From assembly GCA_002952755.1 (NCBI GenBank), contig CP025011.1:510001-542000 (forward strand): DNA of 32,000 nucleotides. Reading direction: 5' to 3'. The stretch's first letter is position 1; each line of letters starts with the position of its first letter. Below are positions 6,040-19,586 of the stretch, piece by piece. Below the pieces are notes generated by a model. It ran no database searches. It saw nothing but the letters and a program-made list of their open reading frames with translations, and had not been told where the DNA came from. Made by a program: the position numbers and the translations under genes. This DNA is from Candidatus Saccharimonadota bacterium. Lineage in GTDB: Bacteria; Patescibacteriota; Saccharimonadia; Saccharimonadales; UBA4665.

Positions 6040-6184
6040 TAAGTCGACAAAAACCGACTGGAACAACTTTCCTTACAAAACAAAAACCGTTTGAGCTCAT
6101 GCGAGCCATGTTATTCGTGAGAACGAATAATTTGGGAGCCCTATATGTGGCAAAAAGACCGACCATTTCTGTGTCGGTCTTTTT
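6040..6184 (+). ncRNA. Candidate small RNA (about 145 nt), family unknown
   Basis: Promoter-like TTGCAT-18-TATACT (6004-6033) lies upstream. Internal hairpins are AGTCG/CGACT (6042-6059) and TTATTCG/CGAATAA (6111-6130), and the terminator is at 6152-6184. No convincing ORF. Confidence 0.3.
6152..6184 (+). terminator. Strong intrinsic (bidirectional-type) terminator in the KH-trmD gap
   Basis: AAAAAGACCGAC-catttctgt-GTCGGTCTTTTT gives a perfect 12-bp stem including the A/T tracts, followed by TTTTTGTTT. Confidence 0.7.
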
Positions 6185-6293
6185 GTTTCTGCGAATAATA
6201 AGATGGCTATCCGGTCCTGCTCGGTTCCTTACTATGTCCACCTATCCTTCTGATCACTCCATCGTCATCCGCGCCTAATCCCGTATATTTTCT

Positions 6294-11248: not shown

Positions 11249-11911
11249 ATGCAGGATCTAACGATCGCTATTCGACCTTTGGCGACCAAACGTACGTTCA
11301 AGAAACATTCCATTCTGTTGTATCAGGGGGAGGTGCCGCGCACCGCCTATATACTGCTCAGTGGCATAGTAAAAACGTACAGTATTAATGCGGCCGGGGA
11401 AGAGCAGATTGCCTCCTTTGAGGTGGAAAAAGATATTTTCCCGCTGTCGTGGATTTTCCACAAAGCTTCTACAACCCTCTATTACCACGAAGCGCTGACC
11501 GACTGCGAAGTCCTAACGGTACCGCGGGATGCGCTGCTTCAAACGTTGGCCGCAGATGCTGAGCTTAAGGATGTCGTCATGGACTACCTTGTTGTGGCAC
11601 ATACCAGTATGTTCCTACGAGTGACTGCCTTGGAGCAGTCGCGGGCCCGGGAAAAGATTATGTTCACGCTTTATTACTTACTCTCGCGGTATGGCCAGGA
11701 GATAAAACCTGGCGTGTTTCGCGTCAGGCTGGCACTGACCCACGGTACGATTGCTAGTCTAGTAGGACTTACGCGGGAAACGACCACGACAGAACTGAGC
11801 CGCTTGCGCCGCGAGAAGGTACTGACGTATACAACCAATGACTACACTATAGATAAGACTAAGCTTGAGCGCTTGCTCGGAGAAGACAGCTTTAAGGATA
11901 TTATTCTGTAG
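11249..11911 (+). CDS. Crp/Fnr-family transcription regulator
   Basis: N-terminal cNMP-binding beta-roll and C-terminal HTH (TIASLVGLTRETTTTELSRLRREKVL). Confidence 0.85.
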   Translation: MQDLTIAIRPLATKRTFKKHSILLYQGEVPRTAYILLSGIVKTYSINAAGEEQIASFEVEKDIFPLSWIFHKASTTLYYHEALTDCEVLTVPRDALLQTLAADAELKDVVMDYLVVAHTSMFLRVTALEQSRAREKIMFTLYYLLSRYGQEIKPGVFRVRLALTHGTIASLVGLTRETTTTELSRLRREKVLTYTTNDYTIDKTKLERLLGEDSFKDIIL

Positions 11912-12013
11912 GCATCCGCTCCTGCCCGTCGAGAGGAGCGTTACACGCAGGCCAGCTTATGCTGGTCTGGCTGCACTACGCCTGACTCCTCTCGACGGGC
12001 AGGAGCGGATGCC
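11911..12013 (+). repeat. Conserved-core super-hairpin, copy 1
   Basis: A 28-bp perfect inverted repeat (11911-11938 / 11986-12013) encloses a 47-nt core, CGTTACACGCAGGCCAGCTTATGCTGGTCTGGCTGCACTACGCCTGA. The left arm starts at the last base of the crp-family stop codon. The element lies between convergent genes. Confidence 0.9.
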
Positions 12014-12034
12014 CAAAACTTATATAATCTGAGC

Positions 12035-12448
12035 TTAGTCGATGTTACTAGCCAGCGTGTTTTCAACCACTTGGAGTAATTCTTTTGGCGAGGCCCAGGC
12101 CTTAAGGATATAGCGGTCGGCGCCAAGGCCGTAGGCTTCATCAATTTCTTTTTGCATGTCGTAGTTACTAAAGACAATGACGCGCACGTTCGGATGTTTC
12201 TTGAGCAGCTGGTATTTCTTAAGAAAGCCAATGCCATCGAGTCGGGGCATTCGCAAATCGAGCAAAATAAGTGTCGGCTCATGCTGGGCTGCTACTTTCA
12301 AAGCTTCTTCGCCGTCGTATGCGGTATACACGGTATAGCCACTTTTTTGCAGGATCATCTGGTAGGCGTCGTTTAATGAGTGCTCGTCTTCAACGATGAG
12401 AATGGAGGGCTGTTGTTTCGTGGTCATAGCTGTGCCGTTTCGATTCAT
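12035..12448 (-). CDS. Stand-alone response-regulator receiver (CheY-like, no output domain)
   Basis: ILIVEDE...ILLDLRMPRLDG...SNY...K receiver motifs. Alternative start at ATG 12427. Confidence 0.85.
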   Translation of the reverse strand: MNRNGTAMTTKQQPSILIVEDEHSLNDAYQMILQKSGYTVYTAYDGEEALKVAAQHEPTLILLDLRMPRLDGIGFLKKYQLLKKHPNVRVIVFSNYDMQKEIDEAYGLGADRYILKAWASPKELLQVVENTLASNID

Positions 12449-12527
12449 GCCTATCTACTATAAGTATACCATCAGATATGCACAGTGAAAAAAATTATAC
12501 CCTTGGCGGCAATCCTTCTTTGCTTTA

Positions 12528-14294
12528 CTAAACTTTTGTGGGCAGAATAATCGTAAGGGTCGAGCCTTTTCCCTGCTTGGAGTCAACGACTATGGCGCCT
12601 CCGTGCAGCTCGACCAGGTGTTTGGCCAGATATAAACCTATACCAGTACCACCGACATGCTGGCTCATTTCGTTTGGCAGACGGGTGAATTGCTTAAACA
12701 TTTCCCGTTGGTCATGCTTGGCAATGCCGACGCCGTTATCGGTAATGCGAATATAGGTATGCCCAATACGCTGGAAAAGCCTTATGCCGATTTTGCCGCT
12801 GCTGGGAGTGTACTTAATTGCGTTGCTGAGAACGTTTTCGATAGCCATGCGGAGCATGTGGGAGTCGGCCTGTATGATGACTGGCTTTTTAGGTAGTTCC
12901 AGTTTGAGGCCGTGATTGGCGGCCTGAATATCAGGACGCTGTTCGGTTACGATGTCGGTGATGAGTTCGTTCAGATCGGTTGGTGTGGGTGCTAGGACGA
13001 TGCGCCCGGCATCGATTTTCGCCAGGTGCAAGATCTCGTTAATAATCTGCAATTGGCGGTCGTTGCTGGCGTAGGCTTTTTCGAGTAGTGTTGTTTGCTC
13101 GGTAGTGATGTGTCCGGCAAAACCCTGTAAAACCATGCCGACGTACTGTTTCACTCCTGTTGCCGGGGTCCGAAGCTGGTGAGATGCCAGTGACAGCAGT
13201 TCATCCTTGGCCAGTTCTACGGCACGTTCCTTTTGGACGGTTAGTTCTTGTGAGCGGGCCCGTAGTAGCAAGAGGACGATGACACCAATGAGCACTGCCA
13301 CAAAGGTACCGGAAAAGAGAATGCCCGCTGGACGCTTACTCTCAATAGAACTTACTAAGCCATTTTTATCAAAGGCATATTGCATATCCCAGGTCTCGCC
13401 ATAAAGCGTCAAATGCCGGCTCACGAGGATGCGGCTATTCTTTTTGAGTATAGCTTCGAAATGGGGTGACTGGTAGAGGTTGGTATGTGCCCCCTCGCCC
13501 TGTACTGCAATTCGAAAACCGGCATTTGCGCTGTCAGTACCTTTACCGATTCCACCGAAAAAGACATCGGCTCGAAACGCGGCGAAGGTATAGCCGAGAA
13601 TGGCACTGCGCCGTTCGTGAATGTTGCTGATTGGCAGATCTACCCGGTAGTAAGGTATGTACATGTTAAATCCAATTGTCGTCCCGTCGGCTGATCCGGC
13701 CGCAGCGAGCCCTCCGGTAATCGTCGTCATCCCGCTGTCCTCTGCATGGAGCAAGGCAGCTTTACGCGATGGATCCGAGTACATATTAAATCCGTAAGGA
13801 ATCTGACCATGCGAAGCTACTAACTGGACATAGGTGAGCGGCGCATAGACCGTATCTGACGATGAGATCGGTTGGATGGTAAAGTTAGGAACTCCCTGCG
13901 ACGCCATATATGCTGCGAGCCCAGGAGCTTGGTCGGGTGTTGTCAGCCGGATGAAGCCAATACCTTGTACACCGGGATAGTTCTGGTTTAGCTGGAAGGC
14001 TTGCAGGTAATGCGTCCAATCGGCTCGAGTCACCTCATCCGAACCTTGCAGCAGGCCGACGCCCCCTTGCAAGATCTCTTCGTATGCGGCCATGCTGCTT
14101 TCAATAGATTGTTCGGTGCTGTGCACATGCATATTGGCCGCAGTAGTTATGCCTTGATTGAGCGAAGTGCGGGCAGCGCTCCAGCCGAATACCGTTGCAA
14201 TCAATATAGCTAATACGATAACTGCCGGCGGAAAATATAATGAATGATACATAGCCGTCGTTCCAAAACGTACACGCTTGCTGTAAAGCCTCAT
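12528..14294 (-). CDS. Sensor histidine kinase with an extracytoplasmic CHASE domain
   Basis: Two TM helices flank a CHASE-like domain (GFNMYSDPSRKAALLHAEDSG). HisKA motif SHQLRTPATG and HATPase N/G boxes are present. Start set to ATG 14294 (track gives 14330), which lies 7 nt downstream of a TATACT hexamer. Confidence 0.85.
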   Translation of the reverse strand: MRLYSKRVRFGTTAMYHSLYFPPAVIVLAILIATVFGWSAARTSLNQGITTAANMHVHSTEQSIESSMAAYEEILQGGVGLLQGSDEVTRADWTHYLQAFQLNQNYPGVQGIGFIRLTTPDQAPGLAAYMASQGVPNFTIQPISSSDTVYAPLTYVQLVASHGQIPYGFNMYSDPSRKAALLHAEDSGMTTITGGLAAAGSADGTTIGFNMYIPYYRVDLPISNIHERRSAILGYTFAAFRADVFFGGIGKGTDSANAGFRIAVQGEGAHTNLYQSPHFEAILKKNSRILVSRHLTLYGETWDMQYAFDKNGLVSSIESKRPAGILFSGTFVAVLIGVIVLLLLRARSQELTVQKERAVELAKDELLSLASHQLRTPATGVKQYVGMVLQGFAGHITTEQTTLLEKAYASNDRQLQIINEILHLAKIDAGRIVLAPTPTDLNELITDIVTEQRPDIQAANHGLKLELPKKPVIIQADSHMLRMAIENVLSNAIKYTPSSGKIGIRLFQRIGHTYIRITDNGVGIAKHDQREMFKQFTRLPNEMSQHVGGTGIGLYLAKHLVELHGGAIVVDSKQGKGSTLTIILPTKV

Positions 14295-14301
14295 GCATCT
14301 A

Positions 14302-14307
14302 AGTATA
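14302..14307 (-). promoter_or_regulatory. -10 hexamer for the histidine kinase, leaderless spacing
   Basis: TATACT-7 nt-ATG 14294. Confidence 0.4.
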
Positions 14308-14429
14308 GACCGCTCTCGCTGAACCCGCACCTAGGTCATCTTAAAATCATGGCAGCGGGGAGGAGGTTTTGCTACACTAGGGTTAGCATAATCTATGGCA
14401 GATCTTAAAGAGTAATATTAAGGGTGGAG

Positions 14430-14831
14430 ATGCCTAAGAATATATTTATACGCTATATATTGGTTGGCGGAACGGCTTATGTGATCGAGATGGGCTCGCT
14501 CTTTGTGCTGCGCTACGGTCTTGATCTGAGCCCTCTCGTATCGGCAGCCTGTAGTTTTTGGATTGGTTTTGCTGTGGCATTTGTGCTGCAGAAATTTGTC
14601 ACCTTCCAGAACTATGAAAAAAAGGCTCAGACGGTTGCCAGGCAGGCGGTATTATACAGCGCCCTCACAGTCTGGAATTACGCATTCACACTTGTACTCG
14701 TGAAGATTTTTGCCAAATATGCCTCGGTGCTGATTATCCGTACTGCTGCTATCGCGGTCATTACTTCCTGGAATTTTTTTGTATACAAACGCTTTTTCCG
14801 TAATCGTCCGCAGGTTGTGATAATCGAATGA
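14430..14831 (+). CDS. GtrA-family membrane protein
   Basis: Four-TM GtrA-like protein (RYILVGGTAYVIEMGSLFVL...). ATG 14430 follows AAGGGTGGAG; the track starts at GTG 14424. Confidence 0.8.
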   Translation: MPKNIFIRYILVGGTAYVIEMGSLFVLRYGLDLSPLVSAACSFWIGFAVAFVLQKFVTFQNYEKKAQTVARQAVLYSALTVWNYAFTLVLVKIFAKYASVLIIRTAAIAVITSWNFFVYKRFFRNRPQVVIIE

Positions 14832-17551
14832 GTACTAGTAAGAAAAAACACCGGTCCAAAGCCAAATCTGCGAAAGCAAGAAGGCAGCAAGCTGCAGCTC
14901 GCAAAACATCGAAGGCGATCGAGCGGAAGGGCAGTACAGAAAATCGGTCGCCAGCTCAAGAAACAGCAACCCCACCAGCAGCTCGCTTGTCTGGTTTTAG
15001 TATTACGGTAGGGAAACGGCGATATGACCTGGCGCCAGTACATGCATGTATTGGGCTTCTTGCTTTGTTAGTGACGGCCGCTGGCTGGTCACTGCTGGCC
15101 GCTCGTATTCAGCAAGGCAACGCTGACCAGACGGTAAACACATATCTTTTTACTCACTGGTCGACATTCCATGCCGCAACATTGCCTGGGGCTCATTCTT
15201 TCCTTCTTAAGTGGCCGCTTTTTGTGTTGGCAAATCTGCTAGGTGCAACGCATGCCACCTTTGCGTTTCTTACCTGTCTTGTCACGTTGACTACTGTGAG
15301 CGCTCTGGCCTATGTTCTGTATAGGATCGATCGCCGGCCTTTATTATTCGGCACCTATTGTCTAGCTCTCGCCTCTATCCTATTGGCGATTCCACCCGAG
15401 CCGTATGCTGGCGGTCTGCTCCCGGTAAATATGGCAATGCTTACCACGCGCAATATCGAATATATAGTCTATATAGTGGGCCTGGTTCTGTGTATTCGTG
15501 CGCCTCGGTTGAAGGCGGGGGGATTTTGGTGGGGAGGGCTACTCCTGGGTATGCTGTTTGCGAGCGACAAGTTGTTCGCCACCCTCAGTATTGGGGGTGC
15601 AGCATTGGCGCTCATAAGCTATGGCATCCGGGGCAAACGGAAACTTGTACGACTATCTCTTATCTGGCTGCTCTGTAGCGGCTTCGCACTGGCTATCGCC
15701 GATATTGTTCTTTGGAGCATTGGGGCGGCTCATCTGACGCATATTGCTACCCAGTCTGGTACGAGCCCATATCCGGCTGCTACTGGTGTTAAAGATATCG
15801 CCCTAGGGGTTATTTTCGGCTGTCTGGGTATATTGACCAATTTTGGCGCCAATCCAGCCTTCGATGCAGCAGTGCTACGCAAAATCCCCAGCCTGGCATA
15901 TGGTCGTTTGGCGAGCCTAAGTGGGTTCGCGTTCGTCATGAACGGCCTCTTATGTATAACTGGCTTGTACGCAACCGCACGTCTGTTAGGTACAAGTTTA
16001 TTCCATTCGAAAGACCGGCAGCCACGTCTTGATATGCCGGTCGTGCTCTCGTTGTTTCTTATTTGGTCGTCTTTAGCCGCCTGCGGGGCATTTATTGCAA
16101 CACATCATTATTACGTTGTCGACGCCCGCTACTTAAGCATTTTGCTGTTTGCAGTGTTTGTCTCGACTGTAACCTATTTTCGGGGAAAAGCACTGCACCG
16201 TGGGCTATTTGCGCCGCTAAGTGTGATGCTGGTAGTTTCGATTAGCTGTGGCACGATTACGGCCATTCGTATATACAAGCAGGATCGTCAGGCACTTGCT
16301 GATGTGAGCACACGCAACGCACTTGTTGCAAAGGCTCTTATCAATCATCCTGTCAGTGTACTCGTGGGCGACTACTGGCGCGTATTGCCCATTAAGGATA
16401 GTGCCTCTCACGGTCTGAATGTCATGCCGCTCGACGCCTGTAATCAGCCGCGGGGCATCTTAAGCAGTGCTACTTGGCAGCCAGATTTGTCCACCCATAG
16501 TTTTGCCTATCTGTTGTCGTTCGATAAGAGTCTTACGAATTATCCGAACTGCTCGTTGACCCAGGTTATGCAAGCATATGGCCGGCCAAATGCGAGCGTG
16601 ACGATAGCCGGTACGCTGGAACACCCTACTGAGATGCTACTTTACTATGACCATGGTGCCCATAAAAGCGCGCCGCAACTTGCGACCTCGGCTTCGCATA
16701 GCGTACCAAGTACCGTGCTACCTATCTCACTTGAAGAACTGCCGATTGAGCATTGCGAAGGAGGGGCGACGATCATGAATGTCGTTGCTCACCAGGACGA
16801 TGACCTACTGTTTATTAGTCCCGATTTACTTCATGATATTCAGGCAAAGCATTGTGTACGTACGGTATATGTCACTGCTGGGGACGGTGGTGGTGATCAG
16901 CTCTATTGGCAAGCGCGTGAGCAAGGTTCGGAGGCTGCGTATTCTACTATGCTCGGCGTTGATAATGGCTGGGTACAACATATCGTAAAACTGGGAGATC
17001 ATGAATTCGCAACGGTTGTAAATCCGCGCGGTAACAAACAGGTCTCATTGATCTTTTTGCATCTGCCCGATGGCAATGTAAGCGGCCAGGGTTTCCGAGC
17101 GTCGGACTTTGAGAGTCTTGCCCGGCTTGAGGGAGATCGTATTAATACAATGCACAGCGTCGATCATCAATCCATCTATACCTCAACGTCACTGGTAAGT
17201 GCACTGACCGAGCTGATGCAGGCTTATCATCCAACCGAGATTCGTACACAGGCTACGTACAATGCCAGCAAGATGTACCAGGACCATAGCGATCATATGG
17301 CAGTGGGTCGTTATACGCAAAAAGCTTATGTGGCCTATGCTGATGAGGGCACAACCATCGAGTTTTATTATGGTTATCCCATCCATGGCATGGTACCTAA
17401 CATTGCTCCGGACGACTTGGCCCAAAAAACGGCGGCGTTCATGGCGTATGCAAAGTTCGATGGAGCGGCTTGCCACAATGTAGATCAGTGTGAGTATTCA
17501 TCGAATTACGGGCCTTACCTGAAGCGACAGTACGGCTATACAGAGCACTAG
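14828..17551 (+). CDS. Polytopic membrane protein fused to a C-terminal PIG-L/LmbE-family deacetylase domain
   Basis: Basic N-terminal tail, about 12 predicted TM helices, then PIG-L motifs VVAHQDDDLLF, YVTAGDGG and QDHSDH. The ATG overlaps the gtrA TGA (ATGA). Confidence 0.8.
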   Translation: MSTSKKKHRSKAKSAKARRQQAAARKTSKAIERKGSTENRSPAQETATPPAARLSGFSITVGKRRYDLAPVHACIGLLALLVTAAGWSLLAARIQQGNADQTVNTYLFTHWSTFHAATLPGAHSFLLKWPLFVLANLLGATHATFAFLTCLVTLTTVSALAYVLYRIDRRPLLFGTYCLALASILLAIPPEPYAGGLLPVNMAMLTTRNIEYIVYIVGLVLCIRAPRLKAGGFWWGGLLLGMLFASDKLFATLSIGGAALALISYGIRGKRKLVRLSLIWLLCSGFALAIADIVLWSIGAAHLTHIATQSGTSPYPAATGVKDIALGVIFGCLGILTNFGANPAFDAAVLRKIPSLAYGRLASLSGFAFVMNGLLCITGLYATARLLGTSLFHSKDRQPRLDMPVVLSLFLIWSSLAACGAFIATHHYYVVDARYLSILLFAVFVSTVTYFRGKALHRGLFAPLSVMLVVSISCGTITAIRIYKQDRQALADVSTRNALVAKALINHPVSVLVGDYWRVLPIKDSASHGLNVMPLDACNQPRGILSSATWQPDLSTHSFAYLLSFDKSLTNYPNCSLTQVMQAYGRPNASVTIAGTLEHPTEMLLYYDHGAHKSAPQLATSASHSVPSTVLPISLEELPIEHCEGGATIMNVVAHQDDDLLFISPDLLHDIQAKHCVRTVYVTAGDGGGDQLYWQAREQGSEAAYSTMLGVDNGWVQHIVKLGDHEFATVVNPRGNKQVSLIFLHLPDGNVSGQGFRASDFESLARLEGDRINTMHSVDHQSIYTSTSLVSALTELMQAYHPTEIRTQATYNASKMYQDHSDHMAVGRYTQKAYVAYADEGTTIEFYYGYPIHGMVPNIAPDDLAQKTAAFMAYAKFDGAACHNVDQCEYSSNYGPYLKRQYGYTEH

Positions 17552-17568
17552 GCGCCTCTTGAGTGGCA

Positions 17569-17678
17569 CAAAACAACCAGCCCCTGCTGCTACGGAGAGC
17601 GTTACACGCAGGCCGACTAGAAGTCGGTCTGGTTGCACTACGCCTGACTCTCCGTAGCAGCAGGGGCTGGTTGTTTTG
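17569..17678 (+). repeat. Conserved-core super-hairpin, copy 2
   Basis: A 31-bp perfect inverted repeat (17569-17599 / 17648-17678) encloses a 48-nt core, CGTTACACGCAGGCCGACTAGAAGTCGGTCTGGTTGCACTACGCCTGA. The element starts 18 nt after the stop codon at 17551. Confidence 0.9.
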
Positions 17679-17711
17679 CTTCCTGCCTTGACTGACAACG
17701 ACCGAACTGGT

Positions 17712-17717
17712 TATGCT
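17712..17717 (+). promoter_or_regulatory. -10 hexamer for 17724..18308, leaderless spacing
   Basis: TATGCT-6 nt-ATG 17724. Confidence 0.4.
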
Positions 17718-17723
17718 ACAATC

Positions 17724-18308
17724 ATGCCGCCTGCAACCCAAACAAATTCTTCTGTCACCCCGGCTTCATCTGCTTCAGAGGCGGTCACCACCACGGAGCG
17801 ACAGTCAAAAAAGGCATCTCACCCGCCAGAGCGTCCTAAGACATCAAGCAACATATTGCCGATATTACTCATCGTAGTTGGAAGTGGGGCTCTTGTGGTG
17901 CTCCTGATTATCGGTGCATACAGGCTCGGCAAGCAAAAACCGCCCACAACTATCACCAAACAAGTACAGGTACCGCTCCCGGCGCCTACGCTTCCAGCCA
18001 ACGCTGTATTAACGGCCGCATGCCTGGCTCAGCGCGGCGAACAGTATGCGCTACCTACGACCAGCACGACCGGCCTAACCTATGATGTCTACCAGGGAAA
18101 AATCGTTGCTATTGAGTACCTTGTCGGCCAAAATGAATTAAGCAAGCCGGGCGATCTATTTTCAAATCTCTCGCTCCCACGCACCGACTACGAACATCTT
18201 ACGGTTAGTTCAGTGCCTGCAAGCGCTAGCCAAAAAGAGCCGCAATTTCGCATTATTGCCTATACGATAAGCCAGTCGGAGGCCGCTAAAATCACTTGCG
18301 TTAAGTAA
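17724..18308 (+). CDS. Single-pass membrane protein with a small extracytoplasmic domain, function unknown
   Basis: TM helix ILPILLIVVGSGALVVLLIIGAY. The track ORF (TTG 17676) would start inside the upstream hairpin arm. ATG 17724 lies 6 nt after a TATGCT hexamer. Confidence 0.55.
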   Translation: MPPATQTNSSVTPASSASEAVTTTERQSKKASHPPERPKTSSNILPILLIVVGSGALVVLLIIGAYRLGKQKPPTTITKQVQVPLPAPTLPANAVLTAACLAQRGEQYALPTTSTTGLTYDVYQGKIVAIEYLVGQNELSKPGDLFSNLSLPRTDYEHLTVSSVPASASQKEPQFRIIAYTISQSEAAKITCVK

Positions 18309-18309
18309 G

Positions 18310-18412
18310 TTTAAGGCACCCGGCTCTCCCAGTAGAGTCAAGCGTAGTGCAACCAGACCAGCGTAAGCTGGCCTGCGTGTAACGCTCTACTGGGAGAGCC
18401 GGGTGCCTTAAA
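18310..18412 (-). repeat. Conserved-core super-hairpin, copy 3 (core inverted)
   Basis: A 28-bp perfect inverted repeat (18310-18337 / 18385-18412) encloses a 47-nt core. The reverse complement of that core is CGTTACACGCAGGCCAGCTTACGCTGGTCTGGTTGCACTACGCTTGA. The element starts 2 nt after the stop codon at 18308. Confidence 0.9.
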
Positions 18413-18445: not shown

Positions 18446-18709
18446 CTAGCGGCCGCTTTTCTGCCCGGCACGCCATCTGGCATGCGCCAGAGCAATACCT
18501 ACAGAAATTGCACTGATATACATAAGGCCGGTAGTACAAGACTGCAAGATAGGAGCATGAGTGCTTATAACTAAATAGGTGCCGCTGGCCAATGTAGCGC
18601 CGACCATGGAGTAAGCCGTGTAAAATTTGGCCCGTGATGGTGTAAAGAAGACATATGTGGTGGCGACCATACTAGCGAGCGCAGTAACAAGATGAATAAG
18701 TACAAACAT
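18446..18709 (-). CDS. Small three-TM membrane protein downstream of cyoE
   Basis: 87-aa hydrophobic ORF with TATACT 6 nt upstream of its ATG. Confidence 0.5.
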   Translation of the reverse strand: MFVLIHLVTALASMVATTYVFFTPSRAKFYTAYSMVGATLASGTYLVISTHAPILQSCTTGLMYISAISVGIALAHARWRAGQKSGR

Positions 18710-18728: not shown

Positions 18729-19586
18729 TTAGGGCAATACGGAACCCGTAGCGGTTGCTGCTACTAGCACTAAAATAACCATTAGTGAGAAGAAGAACAT
18801 CTTGCGTGCCCAGCGTACATCGTCAGTTCCAGTTTTAAAGCCCTGCAGACCACGGGCGAGCCAGGTAATCCCGGCAAGCAGCATCACAGCAAGATAGACG
18901 TAGCCGGCATAGTCAAAAACAGTTAGCGCCGCACACGCTAGTATAAACGCCACAATGTAGGCGCTGATTTGCACCTTTGCCATGCGCATGCCTTTTACCA
19001 CGGGCAACACTGGTACCTCAGCTGCGGCGTAGTCTGCCGATCGATACATAGCAATGGCATAAAAGTGCGGCATTTGCCACGTGACCAGCATCAGGAACAC
19101 AATAACGGCGCCTGCATCTATGCGACCACTCACCGCCAAATAACCCGCGGCAATGGGCATCGCGCCGGAAATACTTCCAACCACTGTGCCTACTGTAGAG
19201 TGTCGCTTAAAGTAGCCATACAGAGCGATGTAGTCAACGAAGCCCACCAGGCCGGCGCCTATCACGTATTTGTTCGTGAAGGATACGAGCACGAGAAAAC
19301 CGGCCACTACCAGGACAGTAGCAAAGAGTAGCGCGCTTCGTGGTGAGATTTGCCCAGTTACGAGTGCCCGCTTCTCTGTCCGTTTCATCTTTTTATCGAT
19401 ATTGCGGTCGATGTAGTTGTTGTACACGCAAGCTGCGGCAATCACGAGCGACGTGCCGAGGGCAGTTTCTAGCAGGAGCGCAAGATGGATGTGTCCTTTG
19501 GCTGCCAGGAAAAAGCCAGCTACAGCAGTAAGTACATTATCATAGATAATGCCTGGTTTGGTTAGTTGATAGTAGGCCTTGAGCAT
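18729..19586 (-). CDS. cyoE: Protoheme IX farnesyltransferase (heme O synthase)
   Basis: UbiA-family motifs (NNYIDRNIDKKMKRT, polytopic), located immediately downstream of cyoD. Confidence 0.92.
   Translation of the reverse strand: MLKAYYQLTKPGIIYDNVLTAVAGFFLAAKGHIHLALLLETALGTSLVIAAACVYNNYIDRNIDKKMKRTEKRALVTGQISPRSALLFATVLVVAGFLVLVSFTNKYVIGAGLVGFVDYIALYGYFKRHSTVGTVVGSISGAMPIAAGYLAVSGRIDAGAVIVFLMLVTWQMPHFYAIAMYRSADYAAAEVPVLPVVKGMRMAKVQISAYIVAFILACAALTVFDYAGYVYLAVMLLAGITWLARGLQGFKTGTDDVRWARKMFFFSLMVILVLVAATATGSVLP

Follow-up and report, generated by a model that had tools for sequence, protein, structure and literature searches.

An apparently undescribed family of extragenic palindromic elements with an invariant, asymmetric core in Saccharibacteria

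In Proteobacteria, the REP/BIME, REPIN (mobilised by RAYT), and ERIC (IRU) sequences are short extragenic palindromic hairpin repeats that occur near gene ends. They often lie between convergent genes, are found in both orientations, and are thought to affect transcript ends and transcript stability. These families conserve the sequence of the stem and are present in tens to hundreds of near-identical copies. The REP and REPIN stem is a 20–40-nt imperfect palindrome that carries a conserved tetranucleotide at its 5' end, and REPs typically flank a RAYT gene encoded in the same genome. The element described here is likewise extragenic, dispersed, and present in both orientations, but only its central junction is conserved and it occurs in approximately 5–12 copies per genome. 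Unlike the stems of REP and REPIN, its arms share no 11-nt word between loci. It has no sequence or Rfam similarity to REP, REPIN, or ERIC, and no gene for a RAYT (Y1 HUH transposase) was found in the 32-kb window, by which we mean the whole stretch of DNA that was analysed. The element is thus akin to REP and ERIC in its position and dispersed hairpin form, but is set apart by an invariant asymmetric core, by arms that are hypervariable yet perfect, by a low number of copies, and by its persistence at syntenic sites.

Other described systems resemble the element in part. MITEs have conserved terminal inverted repeats and a target-site duplication, whereas the termini of this element are semi-conserved (GGC...GCC), its arms are otherwise unique, and no direct repeats flank the copies in the window. 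Integron attC sites are also single-strand hairpins downstream of genes. They have conserved bases that are unpaired or extrahelical and an apical structure that varies in length, and a protein reads one of their strands, as we propose for the element. In attC sites, however, conserved outer R''/R' boxes (RYYYAAC...GTTRRRY) enclose a variable centre, the opposite of the invariant centre and variable exterior seen here, and attC sites lack the 30-bp perfect outer stem that the element has. They also have one orientation relative to their cassettes and adjoin an integron integrase, whereas the element is in random orientation between syntenic housekeeping genes with no integrase in the window. 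Bidirectional intrinsic terminators share with the element a strong hairpin after stop codons that is enriched between convergent genes and folds equally on both strands. Intrinsic terminators have a U-tract after a G+C-rich hairpin, but the window copies have no U-tract, their stem is approximately three times the usual length, and the 47-nt conserved asymmetric core of the element is not required for termination.

TIGR-Tas systems, which have been reported in candidate phyla radiation bacteria, have variable palindromic stems, two single-stranded segments of approximately 9 nt, and a variable linker; the units are in tandem beside a Tas (Nop-domain) gene and their 8–12-nt segments are variable spacers (PMC12045711). 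The element also has a variable palindromic stem around two segments of approximately 9 nt with a linker of variable length. Unlike TIGR units, its copies are single and dispersed and its segments are invariant. The TasR box motifs (UG, CCA) do not fit the core, and no Nop domain was found among the window proteins scanned. We also compared the core by eye with the consensus sequences of the K-turn, box C/D, loop E, and parS half-site motifs, none of which fits fully.

The window is an ordinary part of a chromosome, with genes for ZnuABC, a Crp-like regulator, a histidine kinase and response regulator, GtrA, a PIG-L-domain protein, and UbiA, together with cytochrome oxidase subunits, RNase III, NusB, S16, and TrmD. 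None of its genes was found to encode a transposase, integrase, or reverse transcriptase. The three copies of the element in the window and their parts are as follows.

11911–12013, plus strand: copy 1, whole hairpin element, with 28-bp arms at 11911–11938 and 11986–12013 and the core at 11939–11985
17569–17678, plus strand: copy 2, whole hairpin element, with 31-bp arms at 17569–17599 and 17648–17678 and the core at 17600–17647
18310–18412, minus strand: copy 3, whole hairpin element, with 28-bp arms at 18310–18337 and 18385–18412 and the core at 18338–18384
11948–11969, plus strand: apical hairpin of copy 1, CAGGCCAGC-TTAT-GCTGGTCTG, or CAGGCC-AGC-TTAT-GCT-GGTCTG
17609–17631, plus strand: apical hairpin of copy 2, the site first noticed, CAGGCCGACT-AGA-AGTCGGTCTG, or CAGGCC-GACT-AGA-AGTC-GGTCTG
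18354–18375, minus strand: apical hairpin of copy 3, CAGGCCAGC-TTAC-GCTGGTCTG, or CAGGCC-AGC-TTAC-GCT-GGTCTG in the minus-strand reading
17600–17608, plus strand: 5' invariant core segment CGTTACACG of copy 2 (11939–11947 in copy 1; 18384–18376, minus strand, in copy 3)
17632–17647, plus strand: 3' invariant core segment GYTGCACTACGCYTGA of copy 2, which contains a 5-nt CYUGA bulge adjoining the outer stem

In each copy the core consists of CGTTACACG, the apical hairpin, and GYTGCACTACGCYTGA, in that order, for a total of 47–48 nt. A first-pass annotation of this DNA had described the three apical hairpins and had noted that the segments on either side are identical apart from two C/T positions. 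Re-reading of the window sequence returned exactly these hairpins at these positions, and the two C/T differences were the only ones among the flanks of the three copies. The closing helix, CAGGCC/GGTCTG, contains one G-T pair in all three copies, and the copy 2 hairpin comprises 10 pairs, the fourth of which is the conserved G·U. The annotation was correct in placing an apical hairpin within the core, but the element extends further, as the whole core is enclosed by a perfect outer stem of 28–31 bp. The arm sequence is wholly different among the three copies, and an inverted-repeat scan showed these arms to be by far the longest inverted repeats of the window. The full element is approximately 105 nt and forms, as a whole, one hairpin on either strand. 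The full core pattern has 3 matches in the window compared with 0.00 expected from shuffles. We estimate that a random 11-nt replacement gives a 4-bp stem with a probability of approximately 0.004–0.01.

RNA folding gave an identical fold for all three copies, with minimum free energies of –86.1 kcal/mol (z –13.7) for copy 1, –84.2 kcal/mol (z –11.9) for copy 2, and –77.7 kcal/mol (z –12.0) for copy 3. With DNA energy parameters the z scores were –12 to –13. Moving inward from the outer stem, the predicted junction consists of the 5-nt CYUGA bulge on the 3' side, a CGU/ACG helix, and a UA/CACU internal loop, followed by a 2-bp CA/UG helix, a CG/GY internal loop, and then the apical stem. The segments flanking the apical hairpin had been described as conserved and unpaired. 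They are conserved, but in this prediction they are not fully unpaired, since they pair in part with each other through the CGU/ACG and CA/UG helices. Two direct GTTRCAC heptamers face each other only when the element is folded, whatever the length of the apical hairpin. The element therefore has four layers: a near-perfect stem of approximately 30 bp, an invariant lopsided junction, an inner 2-bp helix with an internal loop, and a covarying apical stem-loop. The outer stem is almost entirely Watson-Crick paired and tolerates almost any sequence. The junction comprises a mismatch at arm pair 2, the bulge, the 3-bp helix, and the UA/CACU loop. The apical stem-loop varies in length, and its fourth pair is usually irregular, with the U on the 3' side fixed.

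To collect the family, one genome per prokaryotic species was scanned with an exact pattern in which the apical region was left free. This yielded 37 loci in 13 assemblies, 12 of which are labelled Candidatus Saccharibacteria or Saccharimonadales (candidate phyla radiation). The remaining assembly bears the label Dormiibacterota, and the copy found in it matches one from a metagenome contig exactly. A second pattern, relaxed at the first two bases, gave 30 metagenome loci, every one of which still has CG there. Removal of duplicates left 57 distinct elements, and the alignment contains 56 sequences, among which related copies are not independent observations. The exact pattern required most of the core nucleotides, so core invariance is partly built into the collection and divergent relatives are invisible to it. 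The three best-sampled assemblies contain 12, 8, and 5 copies. One copy is shortened (L023/L067).

Searches of the fetched loci that allowed up to 2 mismatches per conserved block found no decayed or extra copies, and a covariance-model search of 473 kb of these loci returned known copies only. In the window, the covariance model built from the alignment and run with filters off found only the three known copies, at 108.1 (copy 1), 108.6 (copy 2), and 107 bits (copy 3). The core pattern had no match in viral contigs, and the whole element had no BLAST match among phage or plasmid records. No Rfam 15 family, among them self-cleaving ribozymes and bacterial hairpin motifs already published, reached its gathering score anywhere in the window; at E≤10 the only matches were to generic long-hairpin microRNA precursor models (38.8 bits against a threshold of 84). 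Full-text literature searches found no description of such an element. It thus appears to represent an undescribed family of extragenic palindromic elements of Saccharibacteria.

The 25 core columns that flank the apical hairpin are invariant in the 56-copy alignment, although the search patterns demanded most of them. The 5' segment CGTTACACG is the same in all 56 aligned copies, and no variants of it were obtained when the first two bases were relaxed or when up to 2 mismatches were allowed. When our structure was applied to the 56 copies, 87.2% of cells were paired compared with 57.7% in shuffles, and the covariation score was 0.704 compared with 0.173 in shuffles, with none of 500 shuffles reaching 0.704. 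A control that keeps kinship, in which pairing partners were slid by 1–3 columns, gave covariation scores of 0.12–0.16. Changes on both sides were seen in seven of the nine apical pairs. For instance, pair 42-77 is GC in 29 copies, CG in 23, and AU in 3, and pair 47-72 is AU in 26, GC in 18, CG in 5, and UA in 3. The 57 unique copies contain 47 distinct apical variants with stems of 6 to 16 pairs. When folded singly, these have 415 Watson-Crick pairs, 37 G·U pairs, and 12 single mismatches. RNAalifold recovered the same architecture, including, independently, the same apical helix, and compensated changes in 32 of 39 pairs. The compensatory change that had been proposed from copy 2 is therefore real, and this larger alignment showed neither the uncompensated substitutions nor the hypervariable, mismatched hairpin that had been named as evidence against it. 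Covariation beyond controls that keep kinship, next to conserved unpaired nucleotides, as found here, is generally expected of a structured nucleic-acid element under selection, although template switching in DNA palindromes can imitate this signal.

The outer stem covaries more strongly than the apical stem, with changes on both sides in 28 of 30 pairs and usually all four Watson-Crick types represented. Its arms contain 973 Watson-Crick pairs compared with 42 mismatches, namely 10 G·T, 15 A·C, and 17 others, and the RNAalifold table shows G·U and A·C to be similarly balanced in this stem. In an RNA helix under ordinary selection, G·U is tolerated far better than A·C. The equal treatment of the two suggests that it is the DNA duplex, or both strands simultaneously, on which pairing is maintained. 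Neither a wobble-free outer stem nor random orientation of the core would be expected for an ordinary cis-acting RNA.

In bacteria, template switching between the arms of inverted repeats corrects imperfect repeats to perfect ones (PMC5941160), and in yeast it homogenises the arms and inverts the spacer (PMC8604942). Polymerase template switching can thus mimic compensatory change without selection on an RNA (PMC5941160; PMC8604942), so covariation alone does not prove that a functional RNA is present. We infer that this process by itself would account for the wobble-free perfect arms, the seemingly compensated multi-base changes, and a flipped core described below. Quasipalindrome correction, which is a process and not a family, predicts perfect arms without wobble bias, "compensated" multi-base changes, and spacer inversion, all of which are seen here. 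However, it would also erase the asymmetries of the core, and the element keeps these strictly, which implies that selection acts on top of it.

Three such asymmetries are seen in the aligned copies. At apical pair 4 (44-75), 33 copies have G·U, 10 have A-U, and 13 have another combination (C·U, U·U, or a bulged A), with the 3' U nearly always retained. At arm pair 30-96, a U·C mismatch occurs in 52 of 56 copies, and the window copies and L009 have A-U. The 5-nt bulge does not vary. If the arms are indeed mechanically homogenised, selection must hold these asymmetries, and their retention is the best evidence that something reads one folded strand. The first-pass annotation had proposed a folded RNA or single-stranded DNA that is read by a protein. 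The strand-specific N·U irregularity at pair 4 fits recognition of one folded strand, whereas the covariation that had been offered in support is, for the reason given above, not sufficient.

The position of the element relative to genes was examined in the window and across the family. The 5' arm of copy 1 starts on the last stop-codon base of the Crp-like gene at 11249–11911, and the convergent response-regulator gene ends at 12035. Copy 2 lies 17 nt past the stop of a gene for a 907-residue protein (14828–17551) and is followed by a promoter-like site at 17688–17717. Copy 3 lies 1 nt past the stop of the gene at 17676–18308, in the spacer before the minus-strand ORFs 18446–18709 and 18729–19586. 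Overall, a stop codon lies within approximately 100 nt of the core in 47 of 58 elements; 22 of these 47 are between convergent genes, 12 are in sense orientation, and 13 are antisense. All copies are intergenic and both orientations occur, at random relative to genes and mixed within the window (+, +, –). The genes next to the element across loci are assorted housekeeping genes with nothing in common. A regulon was rejected, as the neighbours are unrelated (NUDIX, RimK, aspartyl-tRNA synthetase, enolase, SmpB, RecF, FtsX, Fmt, Crp, and others).

The sequences past the 3' arms of the window copies, CAAAACTT, CTTCCTGC, and ACTTACTT, contain no U-tract, so these copies are not canonical intrinsic terminators. 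A terminator scan of the window listed none of the three, and an ordinary-looking host terminator is present at 6151–6185. Some relatives carry A/T tracts, but these are within the arms. Two further roles suggested by the layout were considered and set aside. A replication terminus or fork trap, considered because of the +, +, – arrangement, was rejected as the cumulative GC skew has no sign change in the window and copies are spread over many contigs. An outward promoter with YTGACC as a –35 box was rejected because the window copies match this box poorly or not at all and its first base varies.

To learn how the element changes over time, we compared copies at related loci. L024 and L043 are syntenic, share both flanks at 73–83% protein identity, and have the element in the same orientation. 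L010/L064 and L044 are also syntenic, with a common RimK gene at 69% identity. Within the pairs L024/L043 and L010/L044 the core flanks are identical, the arms are rewritten yet paired, and a compensated swap of G-C for C-G is seen in the apical stem. By contrast with the shared orientation of L024 and L043, L022 and L063 lie at the same CNNM/CBS gene end (65% identity) and have the same subfamily and the same arm mismatches, but are in opposite orientation. Active phase-variable inversion was considered and not supported, since independent assemblies of the same loci all have one orientation; this is a weak test, as many of them are probably from the same samples. The spacer orthologous to that of copy 1, between the Crp and response-regulator genes, lacks the element in two relatives, which indicates that the element is dispensable there. 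No clean empty site could be defined for copy 1, as the Crp proteins of the closest relatives are 76–79% identical and their spacer DNA is unrelated or contains extra genes. The only contigs near-identical to the copy 1 locus (L041, L042) carry an identical element.

Subfamilies, defined by the apical hairpin and approximately 16 nt of the proximal arm with the same mismatches, recur at unrelated loci and across genomes (for example, L022/L031 and L019/L029), so the element spread by duplication at some time. We compared arms in 82 pairs of copies from different loci whose apical hairpins differ by no more than 2 nt. Arm identity is high at positions 1–9 from the core, near random at positions 10–22, and partly restored at positions 23–28. 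Identity between copies in the mid-arm is approximately 30%, and the mid-arm is still paired. Near-identical apical hairpins with randomised mid-arms in one subfamily are not predicted by simple in-place divergence. The boundaries between some subfamily members (L019/L029, L022/L031) are sharp. As a general model, insertion of a small mobile core into existing terminator hairpins was rejected: there are no other long palindromes in the window, arm length is uniform at approximately 28–31 bp, and the arm base GGC...GCC and whole arms are recognisably homologous among many copies. Two further models were also rejected. Captured spacers were dismissed because, in the window and loci, each arm matches nothing but the opposite arm of its own element, and no viral contig contains an exact match to 20-mers taken from the three window arms. 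TIGR-like dual guides formed by the two conserved 9-mers were dismissed because target-style patterns gave one match each in viral contigs, which is chance level.

Several explanations of the family were weighed. That the element is a neutral leftover repeat with a chance compensation in copy 2 would be arguable from the three window copies, which offer a single replaced stem, but the larger alignment refutes it and we give it almost no credence. The 47 distinct apical variants nearly all pair, covariation is far above both controls, the core flanks are invariant in every copy found, and no decayed copies are present in the fetched DNA. The statement of the first-pass annotation that this is not a neutral repeat therefore holds. 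The main rival is a selfish non-autonomous mobile element that spreads in the manner of REPINs and MITEs. Here a single-stranded DNA transposase or recombinase encoded elsewhere would read the folded core, as in the subterminal hairpins of IS200/IS605 or REP, and effects on transcripts would be incidental. Such an element would explain the several dispersed copies per genome (12, 8, and 5), the subfamilies common to unrelated loci, the variable presence at orthologous sites, and the truncated copy. The imperfect hairpin, fixed irregular base, and conserved single-stranded flanks including TTAC may also resemble HUH transposase sites, which we take to be a point in its favour. However, the window encodes no transposase, integrase, or reverse transcriptase, the three copies in it show no target-site duplication, and genomes contain few copies. 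The centre is the most conserved part and the arms are the least, which is opposite to the pattern of MITEs and REPINs, and two copy pairs have stayed syntenic across genomes in which flanking proteins are only 69–83% identical. The lack of matches to the core pattern in viral contigs, and to the element in phage and plasmid records, also argues against mobility of this kind. We consider this explanation somewhat unlikely; mobilisation in trans and the account that we favour are not mutually exclusive.

Two other explanations differ in the molecule on which the element would act. As a purely DNA-level site, a cruciform or hairpin would be bound by a structure-specific chromosomal protein for replication, segregation, recombination, or topology, with no role in transcription. 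The outer stem without wobble bias, the random orientation relative to genes, the stability of the hairpin under DNA energy parameters, and the GTTRCAC heptamers that are opposed only in the folded form are all consistent with this. By contrast, the G·U/N·U pair implies that one strand is read, yet orientation is mixed within one contig and within the window, which misfits a role tied to the lagging strand or the direction of replication. There is no change of sign in the cumulative GC skew of the window and no obvious DNA-level explanation for the tight association with stop codons, and we regard a site of this type as improbable. It is also quite improbable that the element is a small, independently acting structured RNA gene with a protein-bound core and an arm that gives each copy its specificity, for example as a guide duplex cut by RNase III. 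The mid-arm is hypervariable yet perfectly paired next to an invariant core, and the host encodes RNase III. The architecture also loosely recalls TIGR-Tas stem-loop units (PMC12045711). But no conserved promoter was found, and the placement and orientation of the copies track the ends of genes. Within the window and fetched loci the arms have no matches elsewhere, and their 20-mers (three window copies) are unmatched in viral contigs. The two 9-nt single-stranded segments are invariant instead of being variable spacers, target-style searches were at chance level, and there are neither tandem arrays nor a Nop-domain gene in the window.

The account that we favour joins three parts: a protein-docking core on a folded strand, arms that undergo template switching, and a structure at transcript ends that works in both directions. 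We hold it tentatively, with a likelihood a little short of one half. The element would fold as a single strand, which might be a read-through transcript of the neighbouring gene, extruded single-stranded DNA, or a cruciform. A lineage-specific protein could then dock on the invariant junction together with the base of the apical helix. At the DNA level, the long arms would be kept perfect by template switching from one arm to the other, which could also invert the core. As the hairpin follows stop codons and lies preferentially between convergent genes, it would most likely act as a two-way transcript-end structure, either a terminator or a block to 3' exonucleases. A purely structural role at transcript ends leaves the 25 invariant core nucleotides unexplained, as well as the random orientation (12 sense, 13 antisense) of an asymmetric core. 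The sequences themselves establish the anatomy, covariation, core conservation, genomic position, and taxonomic range of the copies, and from these we infer transcription, a protein partner, template switching as the force that maintains the arms, and a role at transcript ends.

A more speculative version, which we think very unlikely, is that a dimeric protein reads the junction with its facing GTTRCAC heptamers and that approximately 13 bp of the mid-arm, hypervariable yet perfectly paired, is a determinant specific to each locus. The mid-arm might be a double-stranded guide or barcode released by RNase III, or might provide address sites for a structure-specific DNA enzyme. The elements would then belong to an undescribed candidate phyla radiation system and be neither passive terminators nor selfish repeats.

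Saccharibacteria are epibionts with reduced genomes, and their non-coding DNA has been little studied. The persistence of the element at syntenic sites, with 25 unvarying core nucleotides in the copies found and a rewritten stem, is strong evidence of function and, as judged from these sequences, would imply a protein that binds the element. The family also provides a clean natural case in which compensatory change due to selection on a folded strand, as in the asymmetric core and conserved N·U, can be told apart from that due to mutational homogenisation of palindrome arms, as in the wobble-free stem and flipped core. This distinction matters to those who use covariation to call structured RNAs in intergenic palindromes. 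If these hairpins mark transcript ends, they would help to delimit transcription units in organisms that are hard to culture.

The arms of the ~105-nt element have a biased base composition. When we compared all 57 distinct elements over positions 4-28 of the 5' arm, counted from the core, C outnumbered G in 42 elements versus 8, and A exceeded T overall. The palindromic nature of the arms means that both strands of the DNA show this bias. Therefore, a transcript from either strand would carry a C- and A-rich 5' arm and a G- and U-rich 3' arm.

The core enclosed by these arms contains a GTTRCAC heptamer in two direct copies (columns 33-39 and 79-85 of the 56-sequence family alignment, A1). The version on the 5' side is GTTACAC, and that on the 3' side is GTTGCAC or GCTGCAC. 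In the predicted folded form the two heptamers are opposed across internal loops, and in duplex DNA the spacing from one to the other depends on how long the apical hairpin is. This hairpin is long and branched (CCGGGYCGC...GCGRCTCGG) in a subfamily consisting of the elements at loci L053, L065, L068, L069, L007, L062, L033, L046, and L003. Unlike those of other elements, the distal arms of this subfamily show sequence conservation but pair imperfectly (tCGCTCGCACACATTCCAAAAAGAGTG / CCCTCTTTTTGGAATGGTGCTTCGCT); these arms were found repeatedly at unrelated loci.

Only one truncated copy was found (locus L023, positions 274-332; locus L067, positions 2810-2868). Its 5' arm and core are intact and its 3' side runs into unrelated sequence (CCCTGCCCCCTCTC...); the match to the covariance model built from the family alignment is limited to positions 26-84. 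One carrier is L034 (DATKRL010000035.1), a 15-kb contig from a metagenome-assembled genome (MAG) labelled Candidatus Dormiibacterota. The arms and core of its element are identical to those of the element on a metagenome contig, L049, and in type this element matches those of a Saccharibacteria MAG. The L034 contig is probably mis-binned.

The window holds three copies of the element within 6.5 kb (11911-18412), whereas a covariance-model search of the ~8-kb loci fetched around other copies detected no second copy in any of them. Copy 1 (11911-12013, plus strand) lies in the spacer between a Crp-like gene and a convergent response-regulator gene. The orthologous spacer in a relative with 76% identity in the Crp protein (L038, 4664-4812) is without the element. 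This spacer consists of a C-rich half followed by a G-rich half, and its fold, which contains many G·U pairs, is confined to the plus strand (–66.9 kcal/mol, z = –2.3; minus strand, z = +0.1). Directly after the hairpin of copy 2 (17569-17678, plus strand), and adjoining this copy, is a predicted sigma-70-like promoter (17688-17717; TTGACT, 18 nt, TATGCT). The TTG start listed for the open reading frame at 17676-18308 falls within the 3' arm of copy 2, and the true start is probably a downstream ATG.

Elsewhere in the window, at 6151-6185, CAAAAAGACCGAC/GTCGGTCTTTTTG form an inverted repeat of 13 perfectly matched base pairs. It has a loop of 9 nt, is accompanied by A/T tracts, and resembles a typical intrinsic terminator that works in both directions. 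The presence of this ordinary-looking terminator suggests, therefore, that this host does not rely on the long elements for termination.
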